43,282 nt of DNA. Origin: Candidatus Woesearchaeota archaeon. GTDB taxonomy: Archaea; Nanobdellota; Nanobdellia; Pacearchaeales; GW2011-AR1. The notes beneath the pieces were generated by a model. The model was not told the origin of the DNA. It saw nothing but the letters and a program-made list of their open reading frames with translations, and ran no database searches. The position numbers were made by a program, and so were the translations under genes. The stretch spans positions 1 through 43,282 of the forward strand of contig CAZUXN010000002.1 in NCBI GenBank assembly GCA_964624735.1, written 5' to 3'. This document shows, piece by piece, positions 1 through 38,769 of the stretch; position 1 is the stretch's first letter, and every line of letters begins with the position of its first letter.

Positions 1-2101
1 CTTGAGGAGCTCTATAACCGGGATCCGGGTTAACCATAGAACCGTGCATAATTCTCCCATCTACCTTATTTGAAAGAGGATCAATCCCAACAATAGTAAC
101 GTTTCCTTTAGGGGTATCAGGAACAACCCAGTAGTCGCCGTTTGCAAACTGGCCGTACTGCACTGGCTCTGAAAATGTCCATGTTATTCCAAACTGTGAA
201 AGCTGGGTTGTGTAATTTCCTAAAACAACTTCGCAACTCCCATCAACACAAACATTTCCTCCTGAACATGTTCCGCAATTTAATGTTCCTCCGCAGCCAT
301 CAATCCAAGTTCCACATTCCTGACCTAAACTTGTACATGTTTCTGGAATACAATTTTCAACACAAACACTTGGCTCTTCTGAACAGCTCCATCCACTCTC
401 AACTTGACAAATATCTGAACATCCATCACCATTATTTAAATTATTATCATCACAATTTTCTCCTGTATCTATAATTCCATCACCGCATTCAATATTTATT
501 ATTTCAATACAGCTTCCTCCTTGCAATTCACAATTTCCTAAATCACAGACATCATCATTACATTCTAATTCATAATAATCATTACAATTAGTTATTCTAT
601 TATTGCATAATTCTTCTTGTGTTACACAATCTTCTCCTCCGAACATAGGGTCATAATAACAATCTGGACAATCATTTTTGCATTTATTATAATTACAATT
701 AATTCCCCAAAATAATTCACAATCAGAACAACTATTGCATGTTTTTTCTAAACATCCTGTTATTGAACAATATTCATAACTCTCACACAATTCATCATCA
801 GGAATATTTTCACATCCAATTAAACTACTACAGCTATCAACTGTGCAGGTTATTGAATCATCACAATTAATTAAACTTCCTTCACATATTCCATTTAAAC
901 ACTGATCATTTTCAGTGCATAAATCATTATCATTACATGAATTTAAATTATATTCTATAGTGCATTCTCCTAAACTGCAGATTTCATCTGTACATTTATT
1001 TCCATCATCAGGACAATCTTCATCTAATATACATGAACAAGAACTTATATCAAACTTACAAGAATCTGTTGTTTCATTGCAGTAAGGGACTGAACAAGTT
1101 AGATTATCATCTTCACAAATTTTTGGTTCTCCATAACATAATCCTCCTAAACAAACATCACTTATTGTGCAGAATAAGCTGTCATCACATATTGTATTAT
1201 CTAACTGATTTTCTTCACTGATATTTATCCATTCTGTTTCATTTATAAGATTATAATCACATGTGCTTAAAGTTAAATTACAATAATAATCTCTATTCTC
1301 TTGTTTTGTCTGATTTATTATTGTGCACGAGCTATTTATTATCTGAGAAACATTATACCAATTATCTTCTGAACACTGAGTATCATTTATGCATTGTAAG
1401 ATACAAATTCCTTCCTGACATGTTTTTTCTTCTTCACATTGACCACAGCTTCCACCACAACCATCATCTCCGCAGTTTTTATTTTCACAATTAGGTGTGC
1501 ATGTTGAAGGAGAAGAAGATGACCCTCCTCCATTACTTCCCCCACCTCCAGGACTAGGAGTTGTTTTTGTTGTGTCTAAACTAGGTGAATCAATTGCATC
1601 TCCTGATTCTGTTTTATATTCAAAAACAACACTTACTTCTTCTATATTTTTAAAATTCTCCAAACCTAAATCTTGTGCATTAATCTGATAATCATAATTT
1701 CCTTCAAACTGTTTTCCTAAAATCCAGTCTATAAATCCTTTTTTTAATGGAATACTTATCTCCTGAATTCCTTCATCTGTCTCATAACCATAATTATTTT
1801 TTCCTGACTTAAAAACAAACTTTATTTTTGTTATGTTTTTATTTAAACTTCCTCCTGCTAATTTTAAATAAGATAATCTTCCATCCTCGCTTAACAAAGC
1901 AGATTCTATATTTGCTCCAATGCCAAGAGTTTTTTCAGGAGTTTTGTAATACTGATAAAAAGAAAATAAAAGAAAAATTATAATAATCAAAAGAACAGAA
2001 ATAATTGGAACAACAAAGAATTTTTTGAGTTTCTGGCTTCTTTTGCTTTTCTCTAATTTTTTTAAAATATCTATAGTTTCTTCTTTTTTTGAATCTTGCA
2101 T
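1..2101 (-). CDS. Cysteine-rich membrane-anchored surface protein, N-terminal 700 codons (3' end lies beyond position 1)
   Basis: Own minus-strand translation from ATG 2101-2099: MQDSKKEETIDILKKLEKSKRSQKLKKFFVVPIISVLLIIIIFLLF (TM anchor), then a G/S/P linker (TPSPGGGGSNGGGSSSSPS). The frame stays open to position 1 and is packed with Cys motifs, incl. CGDGIIDTGENCDDNNLNNGDGCSDICQVESGWSC (Myxococcus-type Cys-rich repeat pattern). Absent from the ORF track because there is no stop in the window. Confidence 0.8.
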   Translation of the reverse strand, partial: MQDSKKEETIDILKKLEKSKRSQKLKKFFVVPIISVLLIIIIFLLFSFYQYYKTPEKTLGIGANIESALLSEDGRLSYLKLAGGSLNKNITKIKFVFKSGKNNYGYETDEGIQEISIPLKKGFIDWILGKQFEGNYDYQINAQDLGLENFKNIEEVSVVFEYKTESGDAIDSPSLDTTKTTPSPGGGGSNGGGSSSSPSTCTPNCENKNCGDDGCGGSCGQCEEEKTCQEGICILQCINDTQCSEDNWYNVSQIINSSCTIINQTKQENRDYYCNLTLSTCDYNLINETEWINISEENQLDNTICDDSLFCTISDVCLGGLCYGEPKICEDDNLTCSVPYCNETTDSCKFDISSCSCILDEDCPDDGNKCTDEICSLGECTIEYNLNSCNDNDLCTENDQCLNGICEGSLINCDDSITCTVDSCSSLIGCENIPDDELCESYEYCSITGCLEKTCNSCSDCELFWGINCNYNKCKNDCPDCYYDPMFGGEDCVTQEELCNNRITNCNDYYELECNDDVCDLGNCELQGGSCIEIINIECGDGIIDTGENCDDNNLNNGDGCSDICQVESGWSCSEEPSVCVENCIPETCTSLGQECGTWIDGCGGTLNCGTCSGGNVCVDGSCEVVLGNYTTQLSQFGITWTFSEPVQYGQFANGDYWVVPDTPKGNVTIVGIDPLSNKVDGRIMHGSMVNPDPGYRAPQ

Positions 2102-2152
2102 GAAAATTATAAAAAAAGAGAATATTTATATCTTTTCCTACAACAGCCATTC

Positions 2153-2365
2153 CTATAAAGTGATAAATTTTATCTTTGTTTCTTTAAAAGTTTTTATTGC
2201 TTCAAAATCTTTTGTTATTATAATCCCATCTTTAAAACCAGGTTCTTTTGCACATACGACTAATTCTTTTATTTCTCTTTCTTTAGTTTCTTCATCTTTT
2301 AATTCATATACTACCTGAATAAATTTTTTACATTTAATCTTTTTCTAATAACAAAGTCTATTTCT
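2153..2365 (-). pseudogene. C-terminal remnant of a DUF4143-type AAA ATPase (frameshifted, no start)
   Basis: Minus strand reads ..EIDFVIRK, then in another frame KKFIQVVYELKDEETKEREIKELVVCAKEPGFKDGIIITKDFEAIKTFKETKIKFITL*. This resembles the recalled C-terminal pattern of archaeal DUF4143 ATPases. No ATG or upstream ORF. Confidence 0.4.
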
Positions 2366-2374
2366 GTACTTTGC

Positions 2375-2434
2375 TTATTCTTCCAAATCGTTGTCGAGTA
2401 TGGATTTTTCCTGGGCTTTTGATTTTCTTTTGAT
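2375..2434 (-). pseudogene. Orphan copy of the last ~19 codons of the Zn-ribbon/HTH gene at 19469..20269
   Basis: Minus strand reads KRKSKAQEKSILDNDLEE*, versus RRKSKAQEEALLGDDLELDEL* at the real gene end. Includes an 18-nt exact match TGGGCTTTTGATTTTCTT (2412-2429 = 19515-19532). Confidence 0.4.
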
Positions 2435-2486
2435 ATTAGGAATTAGGGGTAATTTTATAAATTGGGATTTCTGTTAATGTTTGTAT

Positions 2487-2612
2487 GAGGCTGTGGCGCA
2501 GCCCGGTAGCGCACCGCTCTGATAAGTACGAACTTGTTCGTTCATTTGCGAAATCATCGTTCACGAGATTTCAGAAAGGCGGGGGTCCCAGGTTCAAATC
2601 CTGGCAGTCTCA
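2487..2612 (+). tRNA. tRNA-Ile (anticodon GAU) with a ~52-nt intron at the canonical 37/38 position
   Basis: Hand fold: acceptor GAGGCTG/CAGTCTC, D arm GCGC-AGCCCGGTA-GCGC, anticodon stem CCGCT/GGCGG, loop CTGATAA (GAT at 2521-2523), T arm CCAGG-TTCAAAT-CCTGG, discriminator A2612, no encoded CCA. Intron ~2525-2576. Loop CTGA (2519-2522) pairs with TCAG (2571-2574), leaving an AAA bulge next to the stem (BHB-like). Confidence 0.85.
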
Positions 2613-2639
2613 TGTTCGAACCTGGGAGCATAGGGTCCC

Positions 2640-2723
2640 TGCTCACGATTTGCATTTTCGAAAGATAGTGAATTTAAATTCGAAAAAGCGAATCGTTCGG
2701 GTTCAAAGACCTGGCAGTCTCAT
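2640..2723 (+). pseudogene. Degenerate duplicate of the intron 3' part plus 3' exon of the adjacent tRNA-Ile
   Basis: Ends in the same 14 nt CCTGGCAGTCTCAT (2600-2613 = 2710-2723). AAGCGAATCGTTCGGGTTCAAAGACCTGG parallels AGGCGGGGGTCCCAGGTTCAAATCCTGG, but the T arm needs G-U pairs and an 8-nt loop, and there is no 5' half. Confidence 0.5.
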
Positions 2724-2772
2724 TGGTGGGATTGAAGGGAAGTTTTAAAAAGCAAATTTTGATAATGAGGAT

Positions 2773-3339
2773 ATGGGAATTACAAAATATTTGAGGGCGG
2801 CGTGGAAAAAACCCGACGTGAAAGTTTTGAGAACGCGGATGATTGAGTGGCGGAAGGGAGAGGCTATTACTCGAGTTAAGAAGCCGTCGAGGCTGGATAG
2901 GGCGCGGGCGTTGGGATACAAAGCGAAGAAAGGGGTGAGTGTTGTTAGAGTTAAAATTAAACGAGGTGGGCATAAGAGGACGAGACCAAATAAGGCGAGG
3001 CGGACTAAGAGATTGCATATTAGAAAGAATTTGAATATGAATTATAAGGAAATTGTGGAGCAAAAAGTTGCGAGGAGATTTAGTAATATGGAAGTTTTGG
3101 GTTCGTATTGGATTGGGAAAGATGGGATGAATTATTTTTATGAGGTTATTTTGGTTGACAGAAATGAGCCGGGAATTTTGAATGATAAAGAATTGGGAGC
3201 TTTTGTGAAGGCGCCGAAAAGGGGAGCGTTGAGAGGATTGACTTCTGCCGGCAGAAAAGCGAGAGGATTGAGGAATTCGGCGATTAAGGTTTCGAAAGTA
3301 TGTCCGTCGCTGAGGGCGAATAAGAGAAGAAGTAATTAA
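2773..3339 (+). CDS. rpl15e: 50S ribosomal protein L15e (eL15)
   Basis: 188 aa, MGITKYLRAAWKKPD..., very basic. Overall eL15 pattern and typical length. Confidence 0.9.
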   Translation: MGITKYLRAAWKKPDVKVLRTRMIEWRKGEAITRVKKPSRLDRARALGYKAKKGVSVVRVKIKRGGHKRTRPNKARRTKRLHIRKNLNMNYKEIVEQKVARRFSNMEVLGSYWIGKDGMNYFYEVILVDRNEPGILNDKELGAFVKAPKRGALRGLTSAGRKARGLRNSAIKVSKVCPSLRANKRRSN

Positions 3340-3673: not shown

Positions 3674-3849
3674 TGTGTTGATAAATATTTATTTTTTATA
3701 AAGGTTTGGGAATTGCGCTAACTCGGAAGATATTTAATTGGGAGATTATTTATTTTATTATGGATTATAATGAAATTTGGAGGCAGATGTTTAGATTGGG
3801 AAGCTTACGCTAAAGCGATAGCTTGCTCAAAAATCTAAAGATTTTTTGG

Positions 3850-5607
3850 ATGGATTATTCAAAGATTTGCAGTGTTTATGCTGCATTAGAAGGAACGAGT
3901 AAGGGATTGGAGAAGACGGATATATTGGCGAAATTTTTAAGGAGGATTCGTGATGAGCCGGAGTTGATTTATCTTTTGCAGGGTCGGGTGTTTGCGGATT
4001 ATGATAATCGGGAATTGGGGATTTCGCATCAATTGATTATTAAGGCGATTGGTCGGGTGGCTGGAATTGGTGAGGATGTTGTTGTTGAGAAGTTTAAGGA
4101 ACTTGGGGATTTGGGGAAAGTTGTCGAGGCTGTTTTGGGAAGCAAAAAAAAACAAAAGGTTTTGTTTAAAGAAAAGTTGAGCGTTGAGAAGGTGATGGAG
4201 AATTTGCGGAAGGTTCCGACTTTTGAGGGGAAAGGGACTGTTGATTTGAAGATTGGGTTGATTGTTGAGTTGTTGCATTCGGCGACGCCGGAGGAAGCGA
4301 GGTATATTGTGCGGACTGTTTTGGGTGATTTGAAGATTGGGGTTGGTTCTGGGATTTTGAGGGACGCGATTGTTGTGTATTGTTTTGAGCCTAAAAATTT
4401 GGAAGACAAAAAGATTTGTGTTAAGGCTGTTCAGGAGGCGTATGATAAGGCGACAGATTTTGCTGAAGTTTTTGCGAAGGCGCGTGATGATTTGCTGGAG
4501 AAGATTAAGTTGGAGCCCGGGAAACCTGTGAAAGTTATGTTGTTTCCGAAGGCGAAGGATGTTGAAGATGCGTTTCGGATTGTTGGTCGGCCGGCGGCGT
4601 TTGAATATAAGTATGATGGGTTTAGAGTTATGGTGAATAAAACAGATGGCAGAGGACAGAGGGCAGAAGACAGGGTTAAGATTTTTACTCGTCGACTTGA
4701 GGAGGTTACTAAGCAGTTTCCTGAGATTGTTGAGTATGTTAATAGTTATGTGAAGGGAGAGAGTTTTATTTTGGATTGTGAGGTTGTTGGGTTTGATGCT
4801 GGGACTGGGAAGTATACGAATTTTCAGGCGATTAGTCAGAGGATTAAACGGAAGCATAGGATTGGTGAAATGATGGCGAAGTTGCCGGTTGAGTTGACAA
4901 TTTTTGATGTGATTTATTATGATGGGATTAGTTTGATTGAGACGGCGTTTAGCGAGAGGCGGGCTTTGATTGAAAAGATTGTTAGTGAGGACGAGAAGAG
5001 GATTGTTTTGGCGAAGCAGATTGTGACTGGCGACGATAAAGTTGTTGAGAAATTTTACGAGGAGGCGTTGAGTGAGAATCAGGAGGGATTGATGGGGAAG
5101 AGTTTGTCGGCGCCGTATAAACCTGGGGCTCGGATTGGTTATGCGGTGAAATTGAAGCCGGAGGATAATGATTTTGATTTGGTGATTATCGGGGCTGAGT
5201 GGGGGACGGGGAAGCGGGCTGGGTGGTTGACGAGTTTTGATGTGGCTTGTCAAAACTCGTCGCAGGTCGCAGGTCGCGATTCGCTGGTCGATGGGGAAGA
5301 TTTGAGCAGCAAAGGGAAGTTGTTGCAGGTTGGGAAAGTGTCGACGGGGTTGAAAGAGAAGCCCGAAGAAGGTTTGAGCTTTAAGGAGATGACTGATATG
5401 TTGGAGAAGTTGGTTGTTGAAGTTAAGGGGCGGAAGATTAAGGTTCGACCGGAGATTGTTGTGACGGTTCAGTATCAGAATGTGCAGAGGTCGCCGACGT
5501 ATTCTTCGGGTTATGCTTTGAGGTTTCCGAGGATTTTGGGGTTGAGGGAGGATAGGGGTGTTTCGGATATTGCGACGCTGGATGAAGTTGAGGAGGAAGC
5601 GGTTTGA
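3850..5607 (+). CDS. lig: ATP-dependent DNA ligase
   Basis: Adenylation motif EYKYDGFRV, and a DNA-binding/adenylation/OB order typical of archaeal Lig. The start is moved to MDYSKI (ATG 3850) rather than the track's upstream codon. Contains two repeat-derived inserts (see repeats). Confidence 0.9.
   Translation: MDYSKICSVYAALEGTSKGLEKTDILAKFLRRIRDEPELIYLLQGRVFADYDNRELGISHQLIIKAIGRVAGIGEDVVVEKFKELGDLGKVVEAVLGSKKKQKVLFKEKLSVEKVMENLRKVPTFEGKGTVDLKIGLIVELLHSATPEEARYIVRTVLGDLKIGVGSGILRDAIVVYCFEPKNLEDKKICVKAVQEAYDKATDFAEVFAKARDDLLEKIKLEPGKPVKVMLFPKAKDVEDAFRIVGRPAAFEYKYDGFRVMVNKTDGRGQRAEDRVKIFTRRLEEVTKQFPEIVEYVNSYVKGESFILDCEVVGFDAGTGKYTNFQAISQRIKRKHRIGEMMAKLPVELTIFDVIYYDGISLIETAFSERRALIEKIVSEDEKRIVLAKQIVTGDDKVVEKFYEEALSENQEGLMGKSLSAPYKPGARIGYAVKLKPEDNDFDLVIIGAEWGTGKRAGWLTSFDVACQNSSQVAGRDSLVDGEDLSSKGKLLQVGKVSTGLKEKPEEGLSFKEMTDMLEKLVVEVKGRKIKVRPEIVVTVQYQNVQRSPTYSSGYALRFPRILGLREDRGVSDIATLDEVEEEAV
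4641..4675. repeat. 7-nt-period array (AACAGAT GGCAGAG GACAGAG GGCAGAA GACAGGG) inside lig
   Basis: Read directly. Encodes ..TDGRGQRAEDR.. just after the KYDGFR motif, where Pyrococcus ligase (recalled: VHKDGDKIIVYSRRLE) is about 7 aa shorter. Confidence 0.7.
5229..5294. repeat. 12-bp perfect fold-back hairpin plus five 7-nt units inside lig
   Basis: GACGAGTTTTGA (5229-5240) / TCAAAACTCGTC (5250-5261) with a 9-nt loop, then TCGCAGG TCGCAGG TCGCGAT TCGCTGG TCGATGG (5260-5294). In frame (..QNSSQVAGRDSLVDGE..). Confidence 0.85.
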
Positions 5608-5750
5608 GGTCGCTGAGGGTTGCGACTTTGTCGCGATGGTTGGCATCTTTGATATCTGGGTCGGAAACGTTTATAAAGGAAATTTTTTATAGTATTTGAT
5701 GACAGTGGCGAAAAAAGTAAATTCTCTTGGAATTTTCATGTTTCCATTTT

Positions 5751-10521: not shown

Positions 10522-11328
10522 ATGGAAAAGGGAAAAAAATCGGAAGTCGGAAGTCGGAAGTCGGAAGGAATAATTGGGACGACAAAAAAGACTGAGGTTA
10601 AAGAAGTTAAGAAGCTGGATGATGTTAAAGATAGTCTTGAGAATAAGGCGGCATTGGCAGCACACTCTGGTGTACCATCTGAGGATGGCAAAGCTGAGGG
10701 GAAAAGTAGCTCACGGATTACACAGATTAATACGGATTCTGAAAAAGGAAAATGGAAATCTAAGAAGGACAAAAAAAAGGAAGTTGTTGAGTTGGAGAGG
10801 GAGTATGTTGTGCCGTTGAGGCGTGGTTTTTTGAATGTGCCAAAGCATAAGAGGGCGAAGAAGGCAGTTAAGGTTTTGAAAGAGTTTATGGTTCGACATA
10901 TGCGTGTTCGTGATGGGGATTTGAGAAAAGTGAAGATTGATGGTTATTTGAATAATGAAATTTGGTTTAGGGGGATTAAGAAACCGATGGGGAAAATTAA
11001 AGTCCGGGCTAGGAAGATTGATGGGATTGTTTATGTTGAATTGGCTGAGATTCCTGATGTTGTGAAGTTTGTGAAGTCGCGTGAAGAGAAGCGGAAGTTG
11101 GCAGCTGAGAAAATTAAGCCAAAGAAGGTTAAGGCTGAGAAGGAAGTTGTTGACGAAGATAAAGATAAGGATGGGGTTGATGATAAGAAGGAGGAGGCTG
11201 AGGATAAGAAGGCTGGGGCTGAGAAGGCGGCGAAGGTTGAGAAAGCGGTTTCTAAGGAGATGAAGCATACGGCTCAAGGGAAGCATTTGAAGAAGACGAT
11301 GCCGGTTCGGAAGGCGCTCAAAAAATAA
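10522..11328 (+). CDS. rpl31e: 50S ribosomal protein L31e (eL31) with ~90-aa N-terminal and K/E-rich C-terminal extensions
   Basis: Core EREYVVPLRRGFLNVPKHKRAKKAVKVLKEFMVRHMRV...IWFRGIKKPMGKIKVRA. There is no in-frame ATG between 10522 and the core, so the true start is uncertain (TTG near 10789 is possible). Confidence 0.75.
   Translation: MEKGKKSEVGSRKSEGIIGTTKKTEVKEVKKLDDVKDSLENKAALAAHSGVPSEDGKAEGKSSSRITQINTDSEKGKWKSKKDKKKEVVELEREYVVPLRRGFLNVPKHKRAKKAVKVLKEFMVRHMRVRDGDLRKVKIDGYLNNEIWFRGIKKPMGKIKVRARKIDGIVYVELAEIPDVVKFVKSREEKRKLAAEKIKPKKVKAEKEVVDEDKDKDGVDDKKEEAEDKKAGAEKAAKVEKAVSKEMKHTAQGKHLKKTMPVRKALKK
10540..10567. repeat. Four perfect TCGGAAG units
   Basis: TCGGAAGTCGGAAGTCGGAAGTCGGAAG read directly, 18 nt after the rpl31e ORF start. 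Confidence 0.9.
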
Positions 11329-27864: not shown

Positions 27865-27928
27865 TTTCGCTAGCTGTTCGGTGTTCGCTATTCGGTGTTA
27901 GCTTAAGTGTTGCGCGGTTCGTCCGCGC
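27864..27928. repeat. 7-nt-period array flanked by a palindrome and a GC hairpin
   Basis: AACGCGTT palindrome (27859-27866). GTTTCGC TAGCTGT TCGGTGT TCGCTAT TCGGTGT TAGCTTA AGTGTTG. Then GCGCGG-TTCGT-CCGCGC (27912-27928) plus TTTT. Confidence 0.8.
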
Positions 27929-28592: not shown

Positions 28593-29348
28593 ATGGTGAT
28601 GACTGAGACGAAGGTATTTTTTAATGGTGAGATTGGGAGAATTTGTGGGGTTTTGCACAAGGTTGATGATAGTTCTAAGATTGTGATTGTTGTGCATGGT
28701 TTTAGTTCGAACAAGGAGACTGGGGCGGTGGATATTTCGAGGGAATTGAATAAGGTTGGGGTTAATGCTTTGAGGATAGATTTGGATAATCAGGGGGAGT
28801 CCGAGTTGGATTTTGAGACTGGGGCATGTATTCCTAATTATGTTAAGCAAGTTGAGGCGGCGATTAGTTATTGTAAGGGGTTGGGGTATAAGGAGATTAG
28901 CTTGATTGGAGGGAGTTATGGGGGATTGGTTGTTTTTGCTGTTGCTCTTAGTCATCCTGAAATCAAAAGAATGGTTTTGAGGGTTCCTGTTGTTGATCAC
29001 AAGGAGCATGTTATTTGGAAATATGGAGAAGAGAAGTTGGAAGAATTTAAGGAAAATGGTGTTGTTCTTTATTTTAATAAGAATAATGAAAAATTTGATG
29101 TAACGTTTGATTTTATTGAAAAATCTTATCCTTATTCTATGTATGATAGAGCGGGGGAAGTTCGGATTCCGACTTTGATTATTCAGGGGGATGAGGATGA
29201 AGCTGTGGAACCTGATGCGGCGAGAAGGGCGGTGAAGTTTTTTTCTAATGGTAAGTTGTATGTTGTTAAAGGGGCGGGGCATAATTTGGGAGTGGGTGGG
29301 GATTTTAGTGAGGGGTTGAAGGTGTTGGTTGATTTTTTTAGAGATTAG
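28593..29348 (+). CDS. Alpha/beta hydrolase
   Basis: VVHGFSSNK, nucleophile elbow GGSYGG, QGDEDE, GAGH. 251 aa. Confidence 0.7.
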   Translation: MVMTETKVFFNGEIGRICGVLHKVDDSSKIVIVVHGFSSNKETGAVDISRELNKVGVNALRIDLDNQGESELDFETGACIPNYVKQVEAAISYCKGLGYKEISLIGGSYGGLVVFAVALSHPEIKRMVLRVPVVDHKEHVIWKYGEEKLEEFKENGVVLYFNKNNEKFDVTFDFIEKSYPYSMYDRAGEVRIPTLIIQGDEDEAVEPDAARRAVKFFSNGKLYVVKGAGHNLGVGGDFSEGLKVLVDFFRD

Positions 29349-29384
29349 GAAATATTAAAAGTCTCCTTAATTTGGTTTAATGTA

Positions 29385-29519
29385 ATGGCGAAAGAGAAAA
29401 ATGCGACTTTGATAATTACGGAGAAGCCGGCGGCGGCGGAGAAGATAGCGGCGGCTTTGAGTAGTGCGACTGATGAGAAGATTACGAACAAGGATAAGGT
29501 TTCGTATTATGAATTTTAA
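29385..29519 (+). pseudogene. Ghost copy of the topA 5' end (44 codons plus stop)
   Basis: MAKEKNATLIITEKPAAAEKIAAALSSATDEKITNKDKVSYYEF*. Over 90% nt identity by hand alignment to 30022-30156. Confidence 0.9.
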
Positions 29520-29526
29520 AGATTTA

Positions 29527-29733
29527 TTAACAAATTAGGTTCTTTACGTTGACTTCTGAAAGAAAGTTCTTTGGGATTCTTTTGCTTACGTTCAAAAGTT
29601 CTATTCCTAGAATATTTCCTTTTTCGTCTAAATCTAAAATTGTGTTGTCGTCCATTTTTTTGTTTGATGCGAAGTCGCCACTAGAGAATTCTATGTATAC
29701 TGCGTCTGCGTCTTTGTCGAAGGTGATTTCCAT
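29527..29733 (-). CDS. DUF2283-family putative antitoxin
   Basis: MEITFDKDADAVYIEFSSG...DLDEKGNILGIELLNVSK is the typical DUF2283 pattern. Confidence 0.7.
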   Translation of the reverse strand: MEITFDKDADAVYIEFSSGDFASNKKMDDNTILDLDEKGNILGIELLNVSKRIPKNFLSEVNVKNLIC

Positions 29734-29942
29734 TATATATAGTAGGCAGTTATAACCTTTATATATTTATCTTTCTCGTATACGATTTCTATATTCGCCT
29801 TATCGATGTTTTTCTGAACGTAAAATTTTCCATCTTTTTTGGAGGTGTTTTCTGGATATTTAATGGAATTGATAACTTCATCTTTTGTTAATTTTCTTTT
29901 TTTCATTCTAAAGAGGGCGTGTTTGGTGAAAATGATTTCCAT
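29733..29942 (-). CDS. DUF4258-family putative toxin
   Basis: IFTKHALFRMKKRKLTKDEVINSI...IEIVYEKDKYIKVITAY. 1-nt overlap with its DUF2283 partner. Confidence 0.65.
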   Translation of the reverse strand: MEIIFTKHALFRMKKRKLTKDEVINSIKYPENTSKKDGKFYVQKNIDKANIEIVYEKDKYIKVITAYYI

Positions 29943-29986
29943 AATTTTTCCAAGCGAGGAAGTTTATTAAATCTTTGTGATGGTGC

Positions 29987-30013
29987 GAAATATTCTTATA
30001 GTATGTGTTTTTT
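29987..30013 (+). repeat. Promoter-region repeat (copy 2)
   Basis: GAAATATTCTTATAGTATGTGTTTTTTG just upstream of the topA ATG at 30022. Confidence 0.8.
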
Positions 30014-30021
30014 GTATTGGT

Positions 30022-32211
30022 ATGGTTAAGAAGAATGCGACCTTGATTATTACAGAGAAACCGGCGGCGGCGGAGAAGATAGCGGCGGCTTTGAGTGGGG
30101 CGACTGATGAGAAGATTACGAATAAGGATAAGGTTTCGTATTATGAGTTTTACAAGGGAAGTCGGAGATATATTATTGGATGTGCGGTTGGGCATTTGTT
30201 TGGGATTCAGCAGATTGCGAAGAGGGGGCCGTTTCCTAATTTTGAGGTTGAGTGGAGGGCGTCTTATAATAAGAAGGGTGGGGCTTTTACTGAGAAGTAT
30301 TTGAGAGTTTTGAAAAAGTTGGCGAAGGAATGTGATGAGTTTATTGTTGCAACGGACTTTGATGTCGAGGGAGAGGTGATTGGTTGGAATGTTGTGCGGT
30401 TTGTTTGTGGAAAGAAGGATGCTAAAAGGATGAAGTTTTCTTTGTTGACGAAGGAGGCGTTGGATAAGTCGTTTGAGAATTTGTTGCCGACGCTTAATTG
30501 GGGCGCGGCGATTGCGGGGGAGACTCGACATTATATTGATTGGTTTTATGGGATTAATTTGTCGCGGGGTTTAATGAAGGCGTTGAGCTCGACTGGGACT
30601 TTTAGGATTTTGTCGATTGGTCGGGTTCAGGGGCCGGCGTTGAAGATTGTTGCGGACAGGGAGAAAGAGATTCGGGATTTTGAGTCGGAGCCGTATTGGA
30701 ATGTGTTTTTGCAGGTTCAGGATTCGAAGGGGCAGAGAGTTGAGGTGAAGCATCCGAAGGATATTTTTAAAGAGAGTGAGTTGTTGAAGTTTAAGCATTT
30801 GCAGGGGAAGAAAGGTGTTGCTTCTACGAAGATTAGTGACGATGAAGTTAAGGCGCCTGTTCCTTTTGATTTGACGACGCTGCAGACTGAGGCGTACAAG
30901 AATTGTGGGTTTACTCCGACGCAGACTTTGAAGGCGGCGCAGAATTTGTATTTGGCTGGGGCGATTTCGTATCCGAGGACTTCGAGCCAGAAGTATGATG
31001 CGTCGATTGGGTATGATAAGATTTTGAAGAATTTGAAGAAGTATACGACGGCTGTGAAATATGCGGTGAATTCGAAACCGACCGAGGGGACTAAGGTTGA
31101 CCCGGCGCATCCTGCGATTTATCCTACTGGTGAAGCTAAGAAAATTCCTGAGAGGGATAAGAAAATTTATGATTTGATTGTTAAGCGGTTTATTGCTTGT
31201 TTTTGTGATTCGGCTTTGGTTGAGAATAAGAGGATTAAGGTTGTTGTGAATGGTTTGGATTTTGGTGCGAAGGGAGTGCAAATTAAAGAGAAGGGTTGGA
31301 TGAATGTTTATCCGCATGGGACTAAGGAGTCGAAGGTTCCGACGATGAATGGGGATGTTGATGTTTTGGAGATTCGGACCGAGGAGAAAGAGACGAAACC
31401 GCCAAGAAGATATTCTGCTGCGTCGTTGGTTAAGGAGTTGGAGAAGAGGAATTTGGGGACGAAGGCGACTCGGGCGGCGATTGTTGAGACTTTGTATTCT
31501 CGGGGTTATGTTAGGGAGAAGAGTATTGAGGTTACGGAGTTGGGGATGAGAATGGAAGAAACGCTTGAGAAATATTCGCCGATTATTTTGGATGAGAAGC
31601 TTACTCGAGCTATGACTGAAGAATTAGAGAAGCTCGAGTCGGTATTCGGTATTCGGGGTGTCGGGGTGTCGGAGCTTGATAAGTTGAAGAAAGGTGAGAA
31701 GAAAATTTTGGATGAGGCGAAGGTTGTTGTGACGAAGATTGCCGAGGGGATGAGCGCTAATTTGGATAAGATGGGGAAGTCACTTGCTGATGCGAATGCG
31801 GTTGTTTGGGAGCAGGAGAAGGAGGCGAATACAATGAGCGAGTGTCCAGTTTGTCATAAAGGGAAGTTGAGGGTTATGTATGGGAAAAAATTTGGGAGAT
31901 ATTTTGTTTCGTGTGATGCTTATCCGGAGTGCAAGACGATTTATTCTTTGCCGCCGCGTGGTGCTATGCGCCCCGCGAGAAGACAGACGACAGAGGACAG
32001 AGGACAGAGGACAGAGGAGTTGGAGATGTGTGAGGAGTGTGGGTTTCCGAAGGTTGCGGCGTTCAAGAAAGGTGGGGCGCCTTGGAGGTTTTGTTTTAAT
32101 CCGGCGTGTCCGTCGAATGCGGAGTTGACGAAGAAGAAGGAAGAGTTTAAGGCGAAGATTGCGAGTGGTGAGATTAAGGTTGATGAGGATGGGAAGGTTG
32201 TTGAGAATTAG
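30022..32211 (+). CDS. topA: Type IA DNA topoisomerase
   Basis: TOPRIM (LIITEKPAAAEKIA, ATDFDVEGE), active-site region GAISYPRTSSQ, C-terminal Zn ribbons (CPVCHKG..CDAYPEC, CEECGFP..CFNPAC). Start moved to MVKKNATL. Confidence 0.9.
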   Translation: MVKKNATLIITEKPAAAEKIAAALSGATDEKITNKDKVSYYEFYKGSRRYIIGCAVGHLFGIQQIAKRGPFPNFEVEWRASYNKKGGAFTEKYLRVLKKLAKECDEFIVATDFDVEGEVIGWNVVRFVCGKKDAKRMKFSLLTKEALDKSFENLLPTLNWGAAIAGETRHYIDWFYGINLSRGLMKALSSTGTFRILSIGRVQGPALKIVADREKEIRDFESEPYWNVFLQVQDSKGQRVEVKHPKDIFKESELLKFKHLQGKKGVASTKISDDEVKAPVPFDLTTLQTEAYKNCGFTPTQTLKAAQNLYLAGAISYPRTSSQKYDASIGYDKILKNLKKYTTAVKYAVNSKPTEGTKVDPAHPAIYPTGEAKKIPERDKKIYDLIVKRFIACFCDSALVENKRIKVVVNGLDFGAKGVQIKEKGWMNVYPHGTKESKVPTMNGDVDVLEIRTEEKETKPPRRYSAASLVKELEKRNLGTKATRAAIVETLYSRGYVREKSIEVTELGMRMEETLEKYSPIILDEKLTRAMTEELEKLESVFGIRGVGVSELDKLKKGEKKILDEAKVVVTKIAEGMSANLDKMGKSLADANAVVWEQEKEANTMSECPVCHKGKLRVMYGKKFGRYFVSCDAYPECKTIYSLPPRGAMRPARRQTTEDRGQRTEELEMCEECGFPKVAAFKKGGAPWRFCFNPACPSNAELTKKKEEFKAKIASGEIKVDEDGKVVEN
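31603..31675. repeat. 9-bp inverted repeat plus 7/8-nt-period TCGG array inside topA
   Basis: ACTCGAGCT (31603-31611) / AGCTCGAGT (31631-31639), then TCGGTAT TCGGTAT TCGGGGTG TCGGGGTG TCGGAGC (31639-31675). Encodes ..ESVFGIRGVGVSE.. Confidence 0.75.
31977..32018. repeat. Six 7-nt units GAGAAGA CAGACGA CAGAGGA x4 inside topA
   Basis: 42 nt = 14 codons (..RRQTTEDRGQRTEE..) between two Zn-ribbon modules. The unit is nearly the same as in the lig array at 4641-4675. Confidence 0.85.
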
Positions 32212-32266
32212 ACATAGCATATTTAATTATAATAATTCTTATAAATAAGTCGCCCCTTGGCATTTT

Positions 32267-32959
32267 ATGAAAAGTGACCTTGGAGATTTGGCTGGTCTGA
32301 TTGGTTTATATCAACGTGTTCGGGTGGTTGAGAGAAATCCCGATGCGGCTGGAGCTTCAAGAGAATTGTTAGAAGCGAGAAGATTACATGAGATTAGAAT
32401 TAATGGGTTGATGGTTAATAGGGGATATGCTGCCCAAGAGAATCCGGTTTTTGATTATTGCTTAAGATGTTTTAATGGAGGTTCTGATGGTAGAGGTGCG
32501 CTTGATTTTTCGCCTAGAGTGAGAAGATTTATTCGTTATGCTAATGCGAATCAGGGGGGATATATTCTTTCTGCTAATGGAGATGTCCCTGAGGATATTG
32601 GAGTTATTGATGGCGAAGCCCGATTTGAAATGGATAGAACTTTTAGGTATTTGGTAGTTCCGGTTAAGAGACTGAGAACAAATATTGAAGGAAAATGGGA
32701 GAAGAAGTGTTTCTTTAATACTAAAACTAGAGAACCTGGTTTTAATGAAAATAGATTTATGGTTTCTCCTTATGTTTTTAGTGGCAAAAGAGAATGTGAG
32801 GATGATGCTTGGCATGGAGATGTTCCTGGAATGCCCAATGGAAATTCTAGAGTTTCGGTTTATATTGGAGATGGAAGAGTTACTGAATTCTTAGATAGAG
32901 GTTATGTGACGAACGTTCCAGCCAAAGAGAAAAAAGTTGTCTTAAGTGTTCTAAGTTAA
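32267..32959 (+). CDS. Hypothetical protein (orphan)
   Basis: 230 aa, no TM and no recognised motif. Its 3' end overlaps the convergent radB-like gene by 4 nt. Confidence 0.5.
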   Translation: MKSDLGDLAGLIGLYQRVRVVERNPDAAGASRELLEARRLHEIRINGLMVNRGYAAQENPVFDYCLRCFNGGSDGRGALDFSPRVRRFIRYANANQGGYILSANGDVPEDIGVIDGEARFEMDRTFRYLVVPVKRLRTNIEGKWEKKCFFNTKTREPGFNENRFMVSPYVFSGKRECEDDAWHGDVPGMPNGNSRVSVYIGDGRVTEFLDRGYVTNVPAKEKKVVLSVLS

Positions 32960-33708
32960 AATAGTCCGCGTTTTCTTATTCCGGTGTTGATAATTTCGAA
33001 TGCTAATTCTTTGACTGGGAGAGAGCGGTGTTTTTTTAGGATGAGTTTTCTTTTGTTGTTGTAGCCTTTGAGTTCGATTAGGCATTTGGACCAGTATTTT
33101 AGGAGGTCGCCGCCGACCATGGAAACGGAACGCTCTAGCGTTCCGTCGCTATTAGCTATTAGCTGTTTGCTTTTAGGTAAGAATTGGGAGTAGACTTGGT
33201 TTGTTACGATTACTGGGATATTTTGTTTTCTTGCGATTTCGTTTAAGGTTCTTAGTTGTTTTGCAAGTTTTCGGTTTACTTCTGAAATTTTTTCGTTGTT
33301 TTTTGATTGTATCGCTTCGCCGAGTTCGAGTCGGTAGAGCATTGCGATGCTGTCTATTATAATTAATGATATGTTTTCTTTTTTGACGTGTTTAAGCATT
33401 TGGTTGAAGGCTTTTTCTTGTTCTGTGAACGAGGTTGGCTTTAAGAGAAAAATGCTTTGAAGGGCGGCATCGATTTCTTCTTTTGTGCCTTGGTGAATTT
33501 GTTTGAAACGTTCGGTTGAGAATCCACCCTCGGTATCGATGAATATTACTTTGTTTCCTTTTCTGGCTTGGGATGTTGCGACGATGACGCAGAGGTTTGA
33601 TTTGCCTGAGCCGCCGGGGCCGTAGAGGGTCGTGATGATGTCGGTTTCGTAGCCGCCTTGGAGGAAGGTGTTTAGTTCGTATGAGCCGGCTGAGATTTTA
33701 TTGGTCAT
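32956..33708 (-). CDS. radB: RadB-like RecA-superfamily ATPase
   Basis: Walker A LYGPGGSGKSNL, Walker B-like LIIIDS. Start moved to MTNKISAGSYELN (ATG 33708), overlapping the upstream stop. Confidence 0.65.
   Translation of the reverse strand: MTNKISAGSYELNTFLQGGYETDIITTLYGPGGSGKSNLCVIVATSQARKGNKVIFIDTEGGFSTERFKQIHQGTKEEIDAALQSIFLLKPTSFTEQEKAFNQMLKHVKKENISLIIIDSIAMLYRLELGEAIQSKNNEKISEVNRKLAKQLRTLNEIARKQNIPVIVTNQVYSQFLPKSKQLIANSDGTLERSVSMVGGDLLKYWSKCLIELKGYNNKRKLILKKHRSLPVKELAFEIINTGIRKRGLF
33127..33179. repeat. 7-bp perfect hairpin plus five 7-nt units inside radB-like gene (antisense to the gene)
   Basis: GGAACGC-TCTA-GCGTTCC (33127-33144), then GTCGCTA TTAGCTA TTAGCTG TTTGCTT TTAGGTA (33145-33179). 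Encodes ..KQLIANSDGTLERSVS.. Confidence 0.8.
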
Positions 33709-38172: not shown

Positions 38173-38769
38173 TTAGTTTTGAAATTGTAGGATTAACAAT
38201 TCTTCCATAAATATTTTTTTCTTGGCGACGATTTTTGGGTTGTATTTTTTTATTCTGTTTATTGGGGTTAGGGTTGAGATTAGGAGGAATATTTTGCCGT
38301 TTTTGGTTAAATGTTTTTTTGCTTGTCTTAGGAATTTGATTGAAATTTCGTCGCCGTGTTTGCCGCCGGTTGTTGCAAGTTGTGAATCTTTTGGTTCTTT
38401 TTTATCGAAGGGGAGATAGGGAGCGTTGAATACTATCAAATCGAAACGATTTGATGTTGTTGGTTTTTGGTTTTTGGTTGTTGGTAATGGAATGTTTTTG
38501 AATAAGTTGGATTTTATTGCTTTGAATCCTTTTTGTTTTAGGAGTTTTACCGATTTTAGGTTGATGTCTATTGGGGTTATATTTTTTTTGTTTAGGAATT
38601 TTGAGGCTGTTTCTGATAGGATACCTGAGCCAGTGCCCATGTCTAACATTTTTATTGAAGATAAAAATGTGGGTGTTGGGTAGTGGGTGTTGGGTTGTAG
38701 GCTTTTGAGATATTTTTTTAGAAAGTTCGCGAAGAAGTATGAGTCTTCGGCTGTTTGATAAATTTCCAT
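38173..38769 (-). CDS. HemK/PrmC (Mtq2)-like SAM-dependent methyltransferase
   Basis: SAM motif LDMGTGSGIL and FNAPY (NPPY variant). Confidence 0.7.
   Translation of the reverse strand: MEIYQTAEDSYFFANFLKKYLKSLQPNTHYPTPTFLSSIKMLDMGTGSGILSETASKFLNKKNITPIDINLKSVKLLKQKGFKAIKSNLFKNIPLPTTKNQKPTTSNRFDLIVFNAPYLPFDKKEPKDSQLATTGGKHGDEISIKFLRQAKKHLTKNGKIFLLISTLTPINRIKKYNPKIVAKKKIFMEELLILQFQN
38435..38490. repeat. 9-bp perfect hairpin plus five 7-nt units inside the methyltransferase gene (antisense to the gene)
   Basis: ATCAAATCG-AAA-CGATTTGAT (38435-38455), then GTTGTTG GTTTTTG GTTTTTG GTTGTTG GTAATGG (38456-38490). Encodes ..PLPTTKNQKPTTSNRFD.. Confidence 0.85.

Follow-up and report, generated by a model that had tools for sequence, protein, structure and literature searches.

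How two unlinked genes of one archaeal chromosome came to carry nearly the same tandem heptamer is the question raised by a 43,282-nt stretch of DNA from Candidatus Woesearchaeota archaeon (assembly GCA_964624735.1, contig CAZUXN010000002.1; here, the window). The genes are topA, encoding a type IA DNA topoisomerase (29977..32211, + strand), and lig, encoding an ATP-dependent DNA ligase (3823..5607, + strand). Both were assigned from their translations, with the Pfam domains Toprim, Topoisom_bac, and Zn_ribbon_Top1 in the former and DNA_ligase_A_N/M/C in the latter. The window is contig C2 of a metagenome-assembled draft of 575,744 bp in 35 contigs (G000), in which our own gene calls gave 641 genes and 87% coding sequence. 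Relatives of its topA product are labeled Nanoarchaeota, Pacearchaeota, or Woesearchaeota (DPANN), and the genome itself is Pacearchaeota-like. G005, G191, G195, G202, G205, and G210 denote genomes of other species of the same genus. The answer that we consider probable, though by no means assured, is that the two arrays are separate events of different ages, produced by one lineage-specific, sequence-biased, replication-linked mutational process and filtered by selection.

In topA, positions 31977 to 32018 read G AGAAGAC AGACGAC followed by AGAGGAC four times. Tandem Repeats Finder (TRF) reported this as an AGAGGAC-type array (31978..32018, +) with period 7, 5.9 copies, and 94% matches, its two 5' units being imperfect. 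Codons 31978-32019 encode RRQTTEDRGQRTEE in the linker between PPRGAMRPAR and LEMCEECGFP. In lig, the stretch GGCAGAG GACAGAG GGCAGAA GACAGGG at 4648-4675 encodes GRGQRAEDR, and TRF reported a decayed ACAGAGG-type array at 4642..4673 (+) with period 7, 4.6 copies, and 76% matches. Thus, sequence, TRF, and translation all bear out the statement of an earlier note that both genes carry in-frame arrays on the + strand, which is the G-rich strand in the topA and lig region. That note had also proposed frame preference as a test, but no such preference is possible, because each 7-nt array runs through all three frames.

The two arrays are part of a genome-wide class. Period 7 accounted for 195 of the 951 TRF rows in G000 and formed the peak of the period histogram. 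Perfect arrays of at least three copies numbered 46 at period 7, against 0.0 expected in Markov-3 simulations, 7 at period 6, and 0 at periods 8 and 9. Head-to-tail 7-nt repeats are thus in excess over both chance and the neighboring periods, as in the heptanucleotide long simple sequence repeats (SSRs) of prokaryotes. Among the 195 arrays, 79 lay in genes read from the G-rich strand, 52 in genes of the opposite strand, 50 between genes, and 14 at gene edges. The median length was 30 nt in coding and intergenic arrays alike, and perfect runs peaked at 28 to 32 nt, with few shorter or longer. Since length is equal inside and between genes, it is a property of the process and not of selection on the reading frame. 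The single length mode near 30 nt also argues against stepwise change in copy number.

The class has a fixed polarity on the chromosome. GC skew was about +0.4 or -0.5 on every contig of G000, with a uniform sign; as genes lie on both strands, this asymmetry is a property of the chromosome strand and not of transcription. Under a strict definition (perfect, at least 7 bp, and ending at most 8 nt upstream on the G-rich strand), hairpins preceded 34 of 131 arrays; the downstream count was 1 and the random expectation 0.9. Under a relaxed definition, they stood at the 5' edge of 43 of 129 arrays and at the 3' edge of 3 of 129 (controls, 3.4 and 3.1). This polarity flipped with the sign of the skew (26 versus 2 on positive-skew contigs and 17 versus 1 on negative ones) and held in genes of either orientation. 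The hairpin sequences differed from array to array, and the presence of a hairpin bore no relation to array perfection, used as a proxy for age (p = 0.84).

The topA and lig arrays share with this hairpin-plus-heptamer class the period of 7, the length of about 30 nt, the G-rich strand, and the status of insertions, and their membership rests on these properties and on the unit. The topA array measures 41 nt and stands in a linker 9 amino acids longer than that of G205. The earlier note had seen no clear flanking hairpin at either array. This was confirmed for the lig 4642 array, where no hairpin was found (DNA fold, -0.1 kcal/mol). At topA, an imperfect hairpin, CGCG-T-GGTGC-TAT-GCGCC-C-CGCG (31955..31977, +; DNA fold, -7.4 kcal/mol), ends exactly at the array start but is nonsignificant (z = -1.5; 17 of 200 shuffles equally good). 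A similar imperfect inverted repeat was noticed at L036, the G205 locus, by eye; the loop there is the short DKDGN, with no array. The suggestion that these arrays form a second, hairpin-less class did not hold, as 5 of 12 arrays of the GACAG family had hairpins, compared with about one third overall. In addition, G210 carries 4.6 copies of AGAGGAC directly after a 13-bp hairpin in a second topA loop, equivalent to 31639-31672 here.

The unit itself recurs on one strand. In at least two copies, the motif G[AG]CAG[AG][AG] had 7 occurrences on the G-rich strand, where 0.2 were expected, and none on the C-rich strand, for which the expectation was 0.025. The unit family common to topA and lig is thus enriched genome-wide, a point on which the earlier note had made its reading depend. 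Its hosts also include a family B DNA polymerase, prolyl-tRNA synthetase (two arrays), and a DeoC-type aldolase. Against a background heptamer frequency of 3.4e-4, ACAGAGG was the unit of 5 of the 55 arrays in genes read from the G-rich strand (P = 1.6e-11); GTCGCAG was the unit of 13 of the 55 (P = 8e-36). Such genes held 13 of 14 GTCGCAG arrays, 11 of 12 TCGGAAG arrays, and 9 of 10 arrays of GACAGAG plus GACAGAA. TTAG-type units were more often intergenic or at gene edges, although several lay inside called genes.

When the 53 distinct units were aligned cyclically, a core of the form NNNN-T-(A/C)-G emerged, with T in 47 of 53 and G likewise in 47 of 53. Its information content was 4.07 bits, compared with at most 3.09 in 30 null sets; GACAGAG is a CAG variant of this core, and many of the 53 units occur only once. 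The core is common to coding arrays of both orientations and to intergenic ones, and therefore peptide selection is not its source. Selection nonetheless also filters arrays in genes. Among arrays in genes read from the G-rich strand, 49 of 55 units were stop-free in all frames, against 57% of the background, and the encoded peptides had a mean hydropathy of -1.0, against +0.08 for random stop-free local heptamers.

Comparison with relatives gives different ages for the two arrays. The topA linker, from PPRGxMKPAR to LEMCxECGFP, is hypervariable, ranging from 0 to 37 amino acids among relatives. It holds DKDGN in G205, the closest relative, LSKKQCEEKGLPENS in G210, a TCAGATA array in G202, and a decayed AGGACAG array in G195; the AGAGGAC array was not present at the linker in G210, G205, or G202. 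Because the array is near perfect in G000 and the other genomes have other sequences there, it is young and private to the G000 lineage, in a loop that has been repeatedly rewritten. The C-terminal region of topA gave no match to solved structures. A second array site in the same gene (31639..31672, +) consists of TCGGTAT x2.6 followed by TCGGGGTG x2.5. Upstream of the gene, a 128-nt stretch (29395-29521) matches the beginning of topA (its 5' part, 30029-30156) at 92% identity, a ghost copy of the gene start.

In lig, the 32-nt array amounts to an insertion of 6 to 7 amino acids in the beta-turn following ligase motif I, and alignment with solved archaeal ligases left a gap of 7 residues there. 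The array of G210 is perfect (ACAGAGG x4.6, 32 nt) and has identical borders, and that of G000 differs from it by four substitutions; G205, G202, G195, and G191 have a plain five-residue turn and no insertion. Judged from the equal length and borders of the perfect G210 array, the lig array goes back to the common ancestor of G000 and G210 and is old and decayed in G000. In the lig tree, G000 grouped with G202 and G205. Farther downstream, a 12-bp hairpin (5229..5261, +; DNA fold, -11.9 kcal/mol; z = -6.1), whose 3' arm belongs to an 18-amino-acid insertion relative to homologs of the genus, is followed by a GTCGCAG-type array (5259..5293, +) of 2.7 perfect units and then decayed ones. The insert at 5229-5293 begins as an inverted copy of upstream codons, and the array site holds GTCGCT-type units in G205 and GACAGAT-type units in G210. 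A separate observation concerns the opposite strand, where an open frame of 569 amino acids (3937-5646, - strand) runs antisense to the whole ligase gene. It was rejected by our own coding model and probably results from the extreme composition of the strands, but it could mislead gene callers.

The pattern is restricted within the genus and repeats in a sister species. In G005, the skew was about 0.35 and there was no heptamer excess; most coding arrays of G000 were plain insertions of 7 to 18 amino acids relative to G005, in proteins otherwise conserved. None of 150 other genera in the family contained (AGAGGAC)3. Within the genus, 2 of the 49 species, namely, G000 and G210, had it, and 6 of the 49 had (GTCGCAG)3. 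In G210, compared over 371 kb, the skew was about 0.45, period 7 made up 120 of 637 rows, the median length was 31 nt, and hairpins stood upstream in 30 and downstream in 2 of 71 arrays. The topA/lig-type unit was used there at other sites, and the repertoires differed in proportion: GTCGCAG or TCGGAAG in 26 of 195 arrays of G000 versus 2 of 120 of G210 (p = 1.8e-4), the GACAG core in 14 versus 20 (p = 0.014), and the TTAG core in 34 versus 2 (p = 5e-6). At 50 orthologous coding sites, 23 had an array in both genomes, and 18 of these 23 had different units, often perfect in both.

The explanation that we favor starts from what was observed: the arrays obey a strand polarity, often adjoin hairpins, repeat every 7 nt, extend over about 30 nt, are mostly insertions, draw on a biased set of units, and have been rewritten recurrently. 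On this view, the chromosome receives tracts of tandem 7-nt units, each about 30 nt long, in a fixed orientation on the G-rich strand, often directly 3' of a hairpin. As the most likely mechanism, synthesis on a single-stranded G-rich template would stall at a fold-back, and the nascent end would be realigned or reprimed by a polymerase or primase in steps of about 7 nt, up to a patch of about 30 nt. The repertoire of units would be narrow, built around a T-(C/A)-G or CAG core and used differently by sister species, and this would make GACAGAG-type units recur at unlinked sites. Within genes, selection would retain only inserts that keep the frame, have no stop in any of the three frames, encode hydrophilic peptides, and fall in loops or linkers that tolerate them. 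The lig array would have been born before the G000/G210 split and have decayed by four substitutions, and the topA array would have arisen later, in the G000 lineage only.

Several points weigh against this explanation. Two thirds of the arrays are without a detectable hairpin, and neither the topA 31978 array nor the lig 4642 array has a significant one. The G-rich strand is presumably the lagging-strand template, but by analogy with bacterial GC skew. The explanation leaves the 7-nt step and the length of about 30 nt without an account, and no enzyme, gene gain, or gene loss was identified behind the process. Moreover, some distant relatives have K-T-D-G codons (ACAGATGG) at the lig site, one mismatch from the unit, and a local seed may have acted at the topA and lig sites. 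The genes common to G000 and G210 but absent from G005 gave 109 candidates, an uninformative number with G005 and G210 each covered in part. Two simple causes were tried and rejected. Loss of Fen1 is excluded, as Fen1 was present in 12 of 12 genomes tested, with and without arrays, and extreme GC skew alone is ruled out, as G005 is skewed at about 0.35 without arrays.

A local seed would be the starting point of ordinary, independent microsatellite births, in which a native heptamer was duplicated by slipped-strand mispairing and topA and lig became alike through purine-rich codons of Asp-Gly-type turns. Some relatives do encode K-T-D-G at the lig site (AAG ACA GAT GAT GGG and AAA ACA AAG GAT GGC), G205 encodes D-K-D-G at the topA site of L036 (GAC AAG GAT GGT), an AGGACAG array that is independent and has decayed occupies this topA linker at the G195 locus L043, and the heptamer excess of bacteria has been ascribed to slippage (PMC4692102, PMC4679880). 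However, the closest array-free lig relatives, G205 and G202, have GAAAAGAACGGG and GATAGGAATGGG instead of the unit. Array units were also no closer to orthologous local sequence than permuted units, either against G005 (p = 0.23 within gene class) or against G210 (p = 0.37); a p of 0.005 first obtained against G005 was an artifact of mixing gene classes. The recurrence of units (P = 1e-11 to 1e-36), the different perfect units at orthologous sites, and a single length mode of about 30 nt that is unlike a stepwise process make such births unlikely. With the unit enriched on one strand and drawn from a narrow repertoire with a common core, the view of the earlier note that birth from local sequence does not explain the shared unit is upheld. 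That note had left a choice between a common sequence-specific process and a copied element, and only the process is supported: the flanks of all GACAG-, GTCGCAG-, and TCGGAAG-type arrays were unrelated, with no sequence shared beyond the repeat, and the lig array is present in G210 while the topA array is not. A mobile element or copied cassette would be marked by sequence shared beyond the repeat, defined ends, and target duplication, and the unrelated flanks do not fit this. The recurring unit is neither a copied element nor the product of chance, and a local origin for it is improbable.

Copying could still act on the tract alone, if new tracts were templated from existing arrays by ectopic template switching or short-patch conversion and topA was copied from, e.g., lig. 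Unit frequencies that differ between G000 and G210, different units at the same site in sister species, a repeat phase that varies at array borders (by eye, in the arrays listed), and a constant array length whatever the unit would all suit such copying. Yet the arrays have no common flanking sequence, the primary origin of the 7-nt period would be left unaccounted for, unit families with one core point to an intrinsic preference, (GTCGCAG)3 occurs in six species, and many of the 53 units occur once; we regard this origin, too, as improbable. Much less credible is a functional role, as phase-variable contingency loci or as a selected peptide motif (TEDRGQR) added to DNA enzymes. Three unit-bearing genes, topA, lig, and the family B polymerase, do act on DNA, but the unit is also found in prolyl-tRNA synthetase and the DeoC aldolase, and the process acts between genes too. 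Changing the copy number by one would shift the frame of an essential gene, given the 7-nt unit. Moreover, two assemblies have identical arrays, the 32-nt length of the lig array persists across species even as its sequence decays, and relatives have unrelated sequences in the same loops. Least credible of all, to the point of being negligible, is an assembly or amplification artifact such as chimeric fold-backs. The genome is a metagenome-assembled draft in 35 contigs, but reading frames are kept throughout, the lig array has an ortholog in a genome from another study, and G210 reproduces the pattern. A JGI contig obtained independently (3793 nt), matching 29296-33088 of the window, differs by 2 single-nucleotide polymorphisms and 0 indels, with identical arrays; it was the sole other contig found to encode an identical topA and is a weak substitute for read-level data on copy number.

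Parts of the favored process have counterparts in known systems. Rickettsia palindromic elements are in-frame, hairpin-capable inserts at tolerant sites of housekeeping genes and are copies of one mobile family. The arrays here are likewise in-frame inserts in housekeeping genes, but their hairpins and flanks differ and the unit alone recurs. The cyanobacterial STRR sequences are a single-unit heptamer family. GGGNATC heptamers are known from Xanthomonas and Nostoc (PMC4692102) and TAACTGA heptamers from Beggiatoaceae and cyanobacteria (PMC4679880). All three resemble the present arrays in being short arrays of 2 to 6 copies of a favored heptamer at many unlinked sites, and TTAG-type units here, like TAACTGA, put stop codons in all frames. 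However, those families lie mainly between genes, each is dominated by one unit, and neither a hairpin nor a strand rule has been reported for them, whereas the arrays found here are mostly coding and comprise dozens of units that share a T(C/A)G core. As summarized in the same two papers, heptanucleotides are over-represented among long SSRs of prokaryotes, and a connection with the length of DNA that the polymerase holds has been suggested (Mrazek, Guo and Shah 2007, via PMC4692102 and PMC4679880). As far as these summaries go, the specific over-representation of period 7 is alike; here, two thirds of the arrays lie inside essential genes in frame, at about 30 nt, on one replication strand, often abutting a hairpin, and in an archaeon.

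Short-range template-switch and quasi-palindrome mutations (PMC7954356, PMC13100816) and the duplication or template-switch events of yeast rad27 (PMC5677150) likewise involve replication-linked inverted repeats, made or perfected, and small duplications. They add no tract of about 30 nt of 7-nt repeats, and Fen1 is present here. An inverted copy of nearby sequence, as left by a template switch, was not seen at the topA or lig arrays but was seen at the neighboring lig insert (5229-5261). Contingency loci, such as the phase-variable SSRs of Haemophilus influenzae (PMC2651432), are tandem short repeats within reading frames, as here, but lie in surface or virulence genes and switch frame by gain or loss of units. 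The hosts of the present arrays are essential housekeeping genes; the arrays do not differ between two assemblies, their length is conserved between species, and they do not fit such loci. In the literature searched, no paper describes this hairpin-plus-heptamer class, and none connects DPANN or Pacearchaeota to such repeats or to GC skew.

Further arrays in the window illustrate the range of the class. A perfect TCGGAAG x4 array stands near a gene start (10540..10567, +). In a - strand gene, an array at 33148..33176 (+) follows an 8-bp hairpin, and its polarity follows the G-rich strand and not the gene. Two arrays stand together in a - strand gene, a GGTTGTT-type array after a 7-bp hairpin (38456..38485, +), which is a 12-amino-acid insertion relative to G005 and G210, and a TGGGTGT-type array after a 9-bp hairpin (38670..38695, +). 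The intergenic TTAGCTR-type array at 23986..24016 (+) has stop codons in all frames on both strands, as do the TTAG-type arrays at 27875-27899, C4:10047, C25:5700, and C24:4331; some arrays of this type provide the stop codon of the upstream gene. Elsewhere in the draft, one gene of 444 amino acids (C7:25402-26736) has four perfect arrays, three GTCGCAG and one TCGGAAG, in 650 nt, and no match spanning it was found in G005 or G210. At C15:10880-11180, a module of about 235 nt, which combines a GC-rich hairpin with an AGGTATT/AGGGATT array, is repeated beside runs of N, where the assembly is unresolved.

The beginning of the window (1-2800) has features of its own. GC skew is -0.34 over 1-2000 and positive over the rest, with a candidate switch point at about 2.1-2.7 kb, and the change of sign may mark a replication origin or terminus. 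An open reading frame of 700 amino acids there (2-2101, - strand) gave no Pfam match. In the gap that follows, a 22-nt direct repeat, GTCCCAGGTTCAAATCCTGGCA x1.9 (2585-2625), resembles a tRNA T-arm, but ARAGORN called no tRNA. In the array-free relative G005, contig C3 (L093-L095, about 30 kb) has a clean switch of GC skew from +0.4 to -0.4 inside one contig, which could serve as a synteny anchor for an origin or terminus.

If the favored explanation is correct, the arrays preserve, in an uncultivated archaeon, the traces of a replication error specific to one strand. Its measurable parameters are the step of 7 nt, the tract length of about 30 nt, the one-sided hairpin, and the preferred unit core. 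Topoisomerase, ligase, family B polymerase, and tRNA synthetases would gain surface loops in single events, and sister species would rewrite identical loops repeatedly. For annotation, such arrays should not be taken for frameshift-prone contingency loci, mobile elements, or assembly errors. More tentatively, and with the odds against it, a small Pacearchaeota-like subclade might possess a dedicated or altered replication enzyme, e.g., a primase or polymerase, that, where the lagging-strand template folds back, restarts or stutters every 7 nt at a T(C/A)G-type site, writing tracts of about 30 nt and rewriting hot-spot loops. Such an enzyme would represent an undescribed, sequence-biased insertion mutagenesis that makes new loops in essential proteins. 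Finding the enzyme behind the process would provide a testable link among extreme GC skew, the folding of single-stranded DNA, and the birth of repeats, and would bear on the dominance of heptamers among the long SSRs of prokaryotes.

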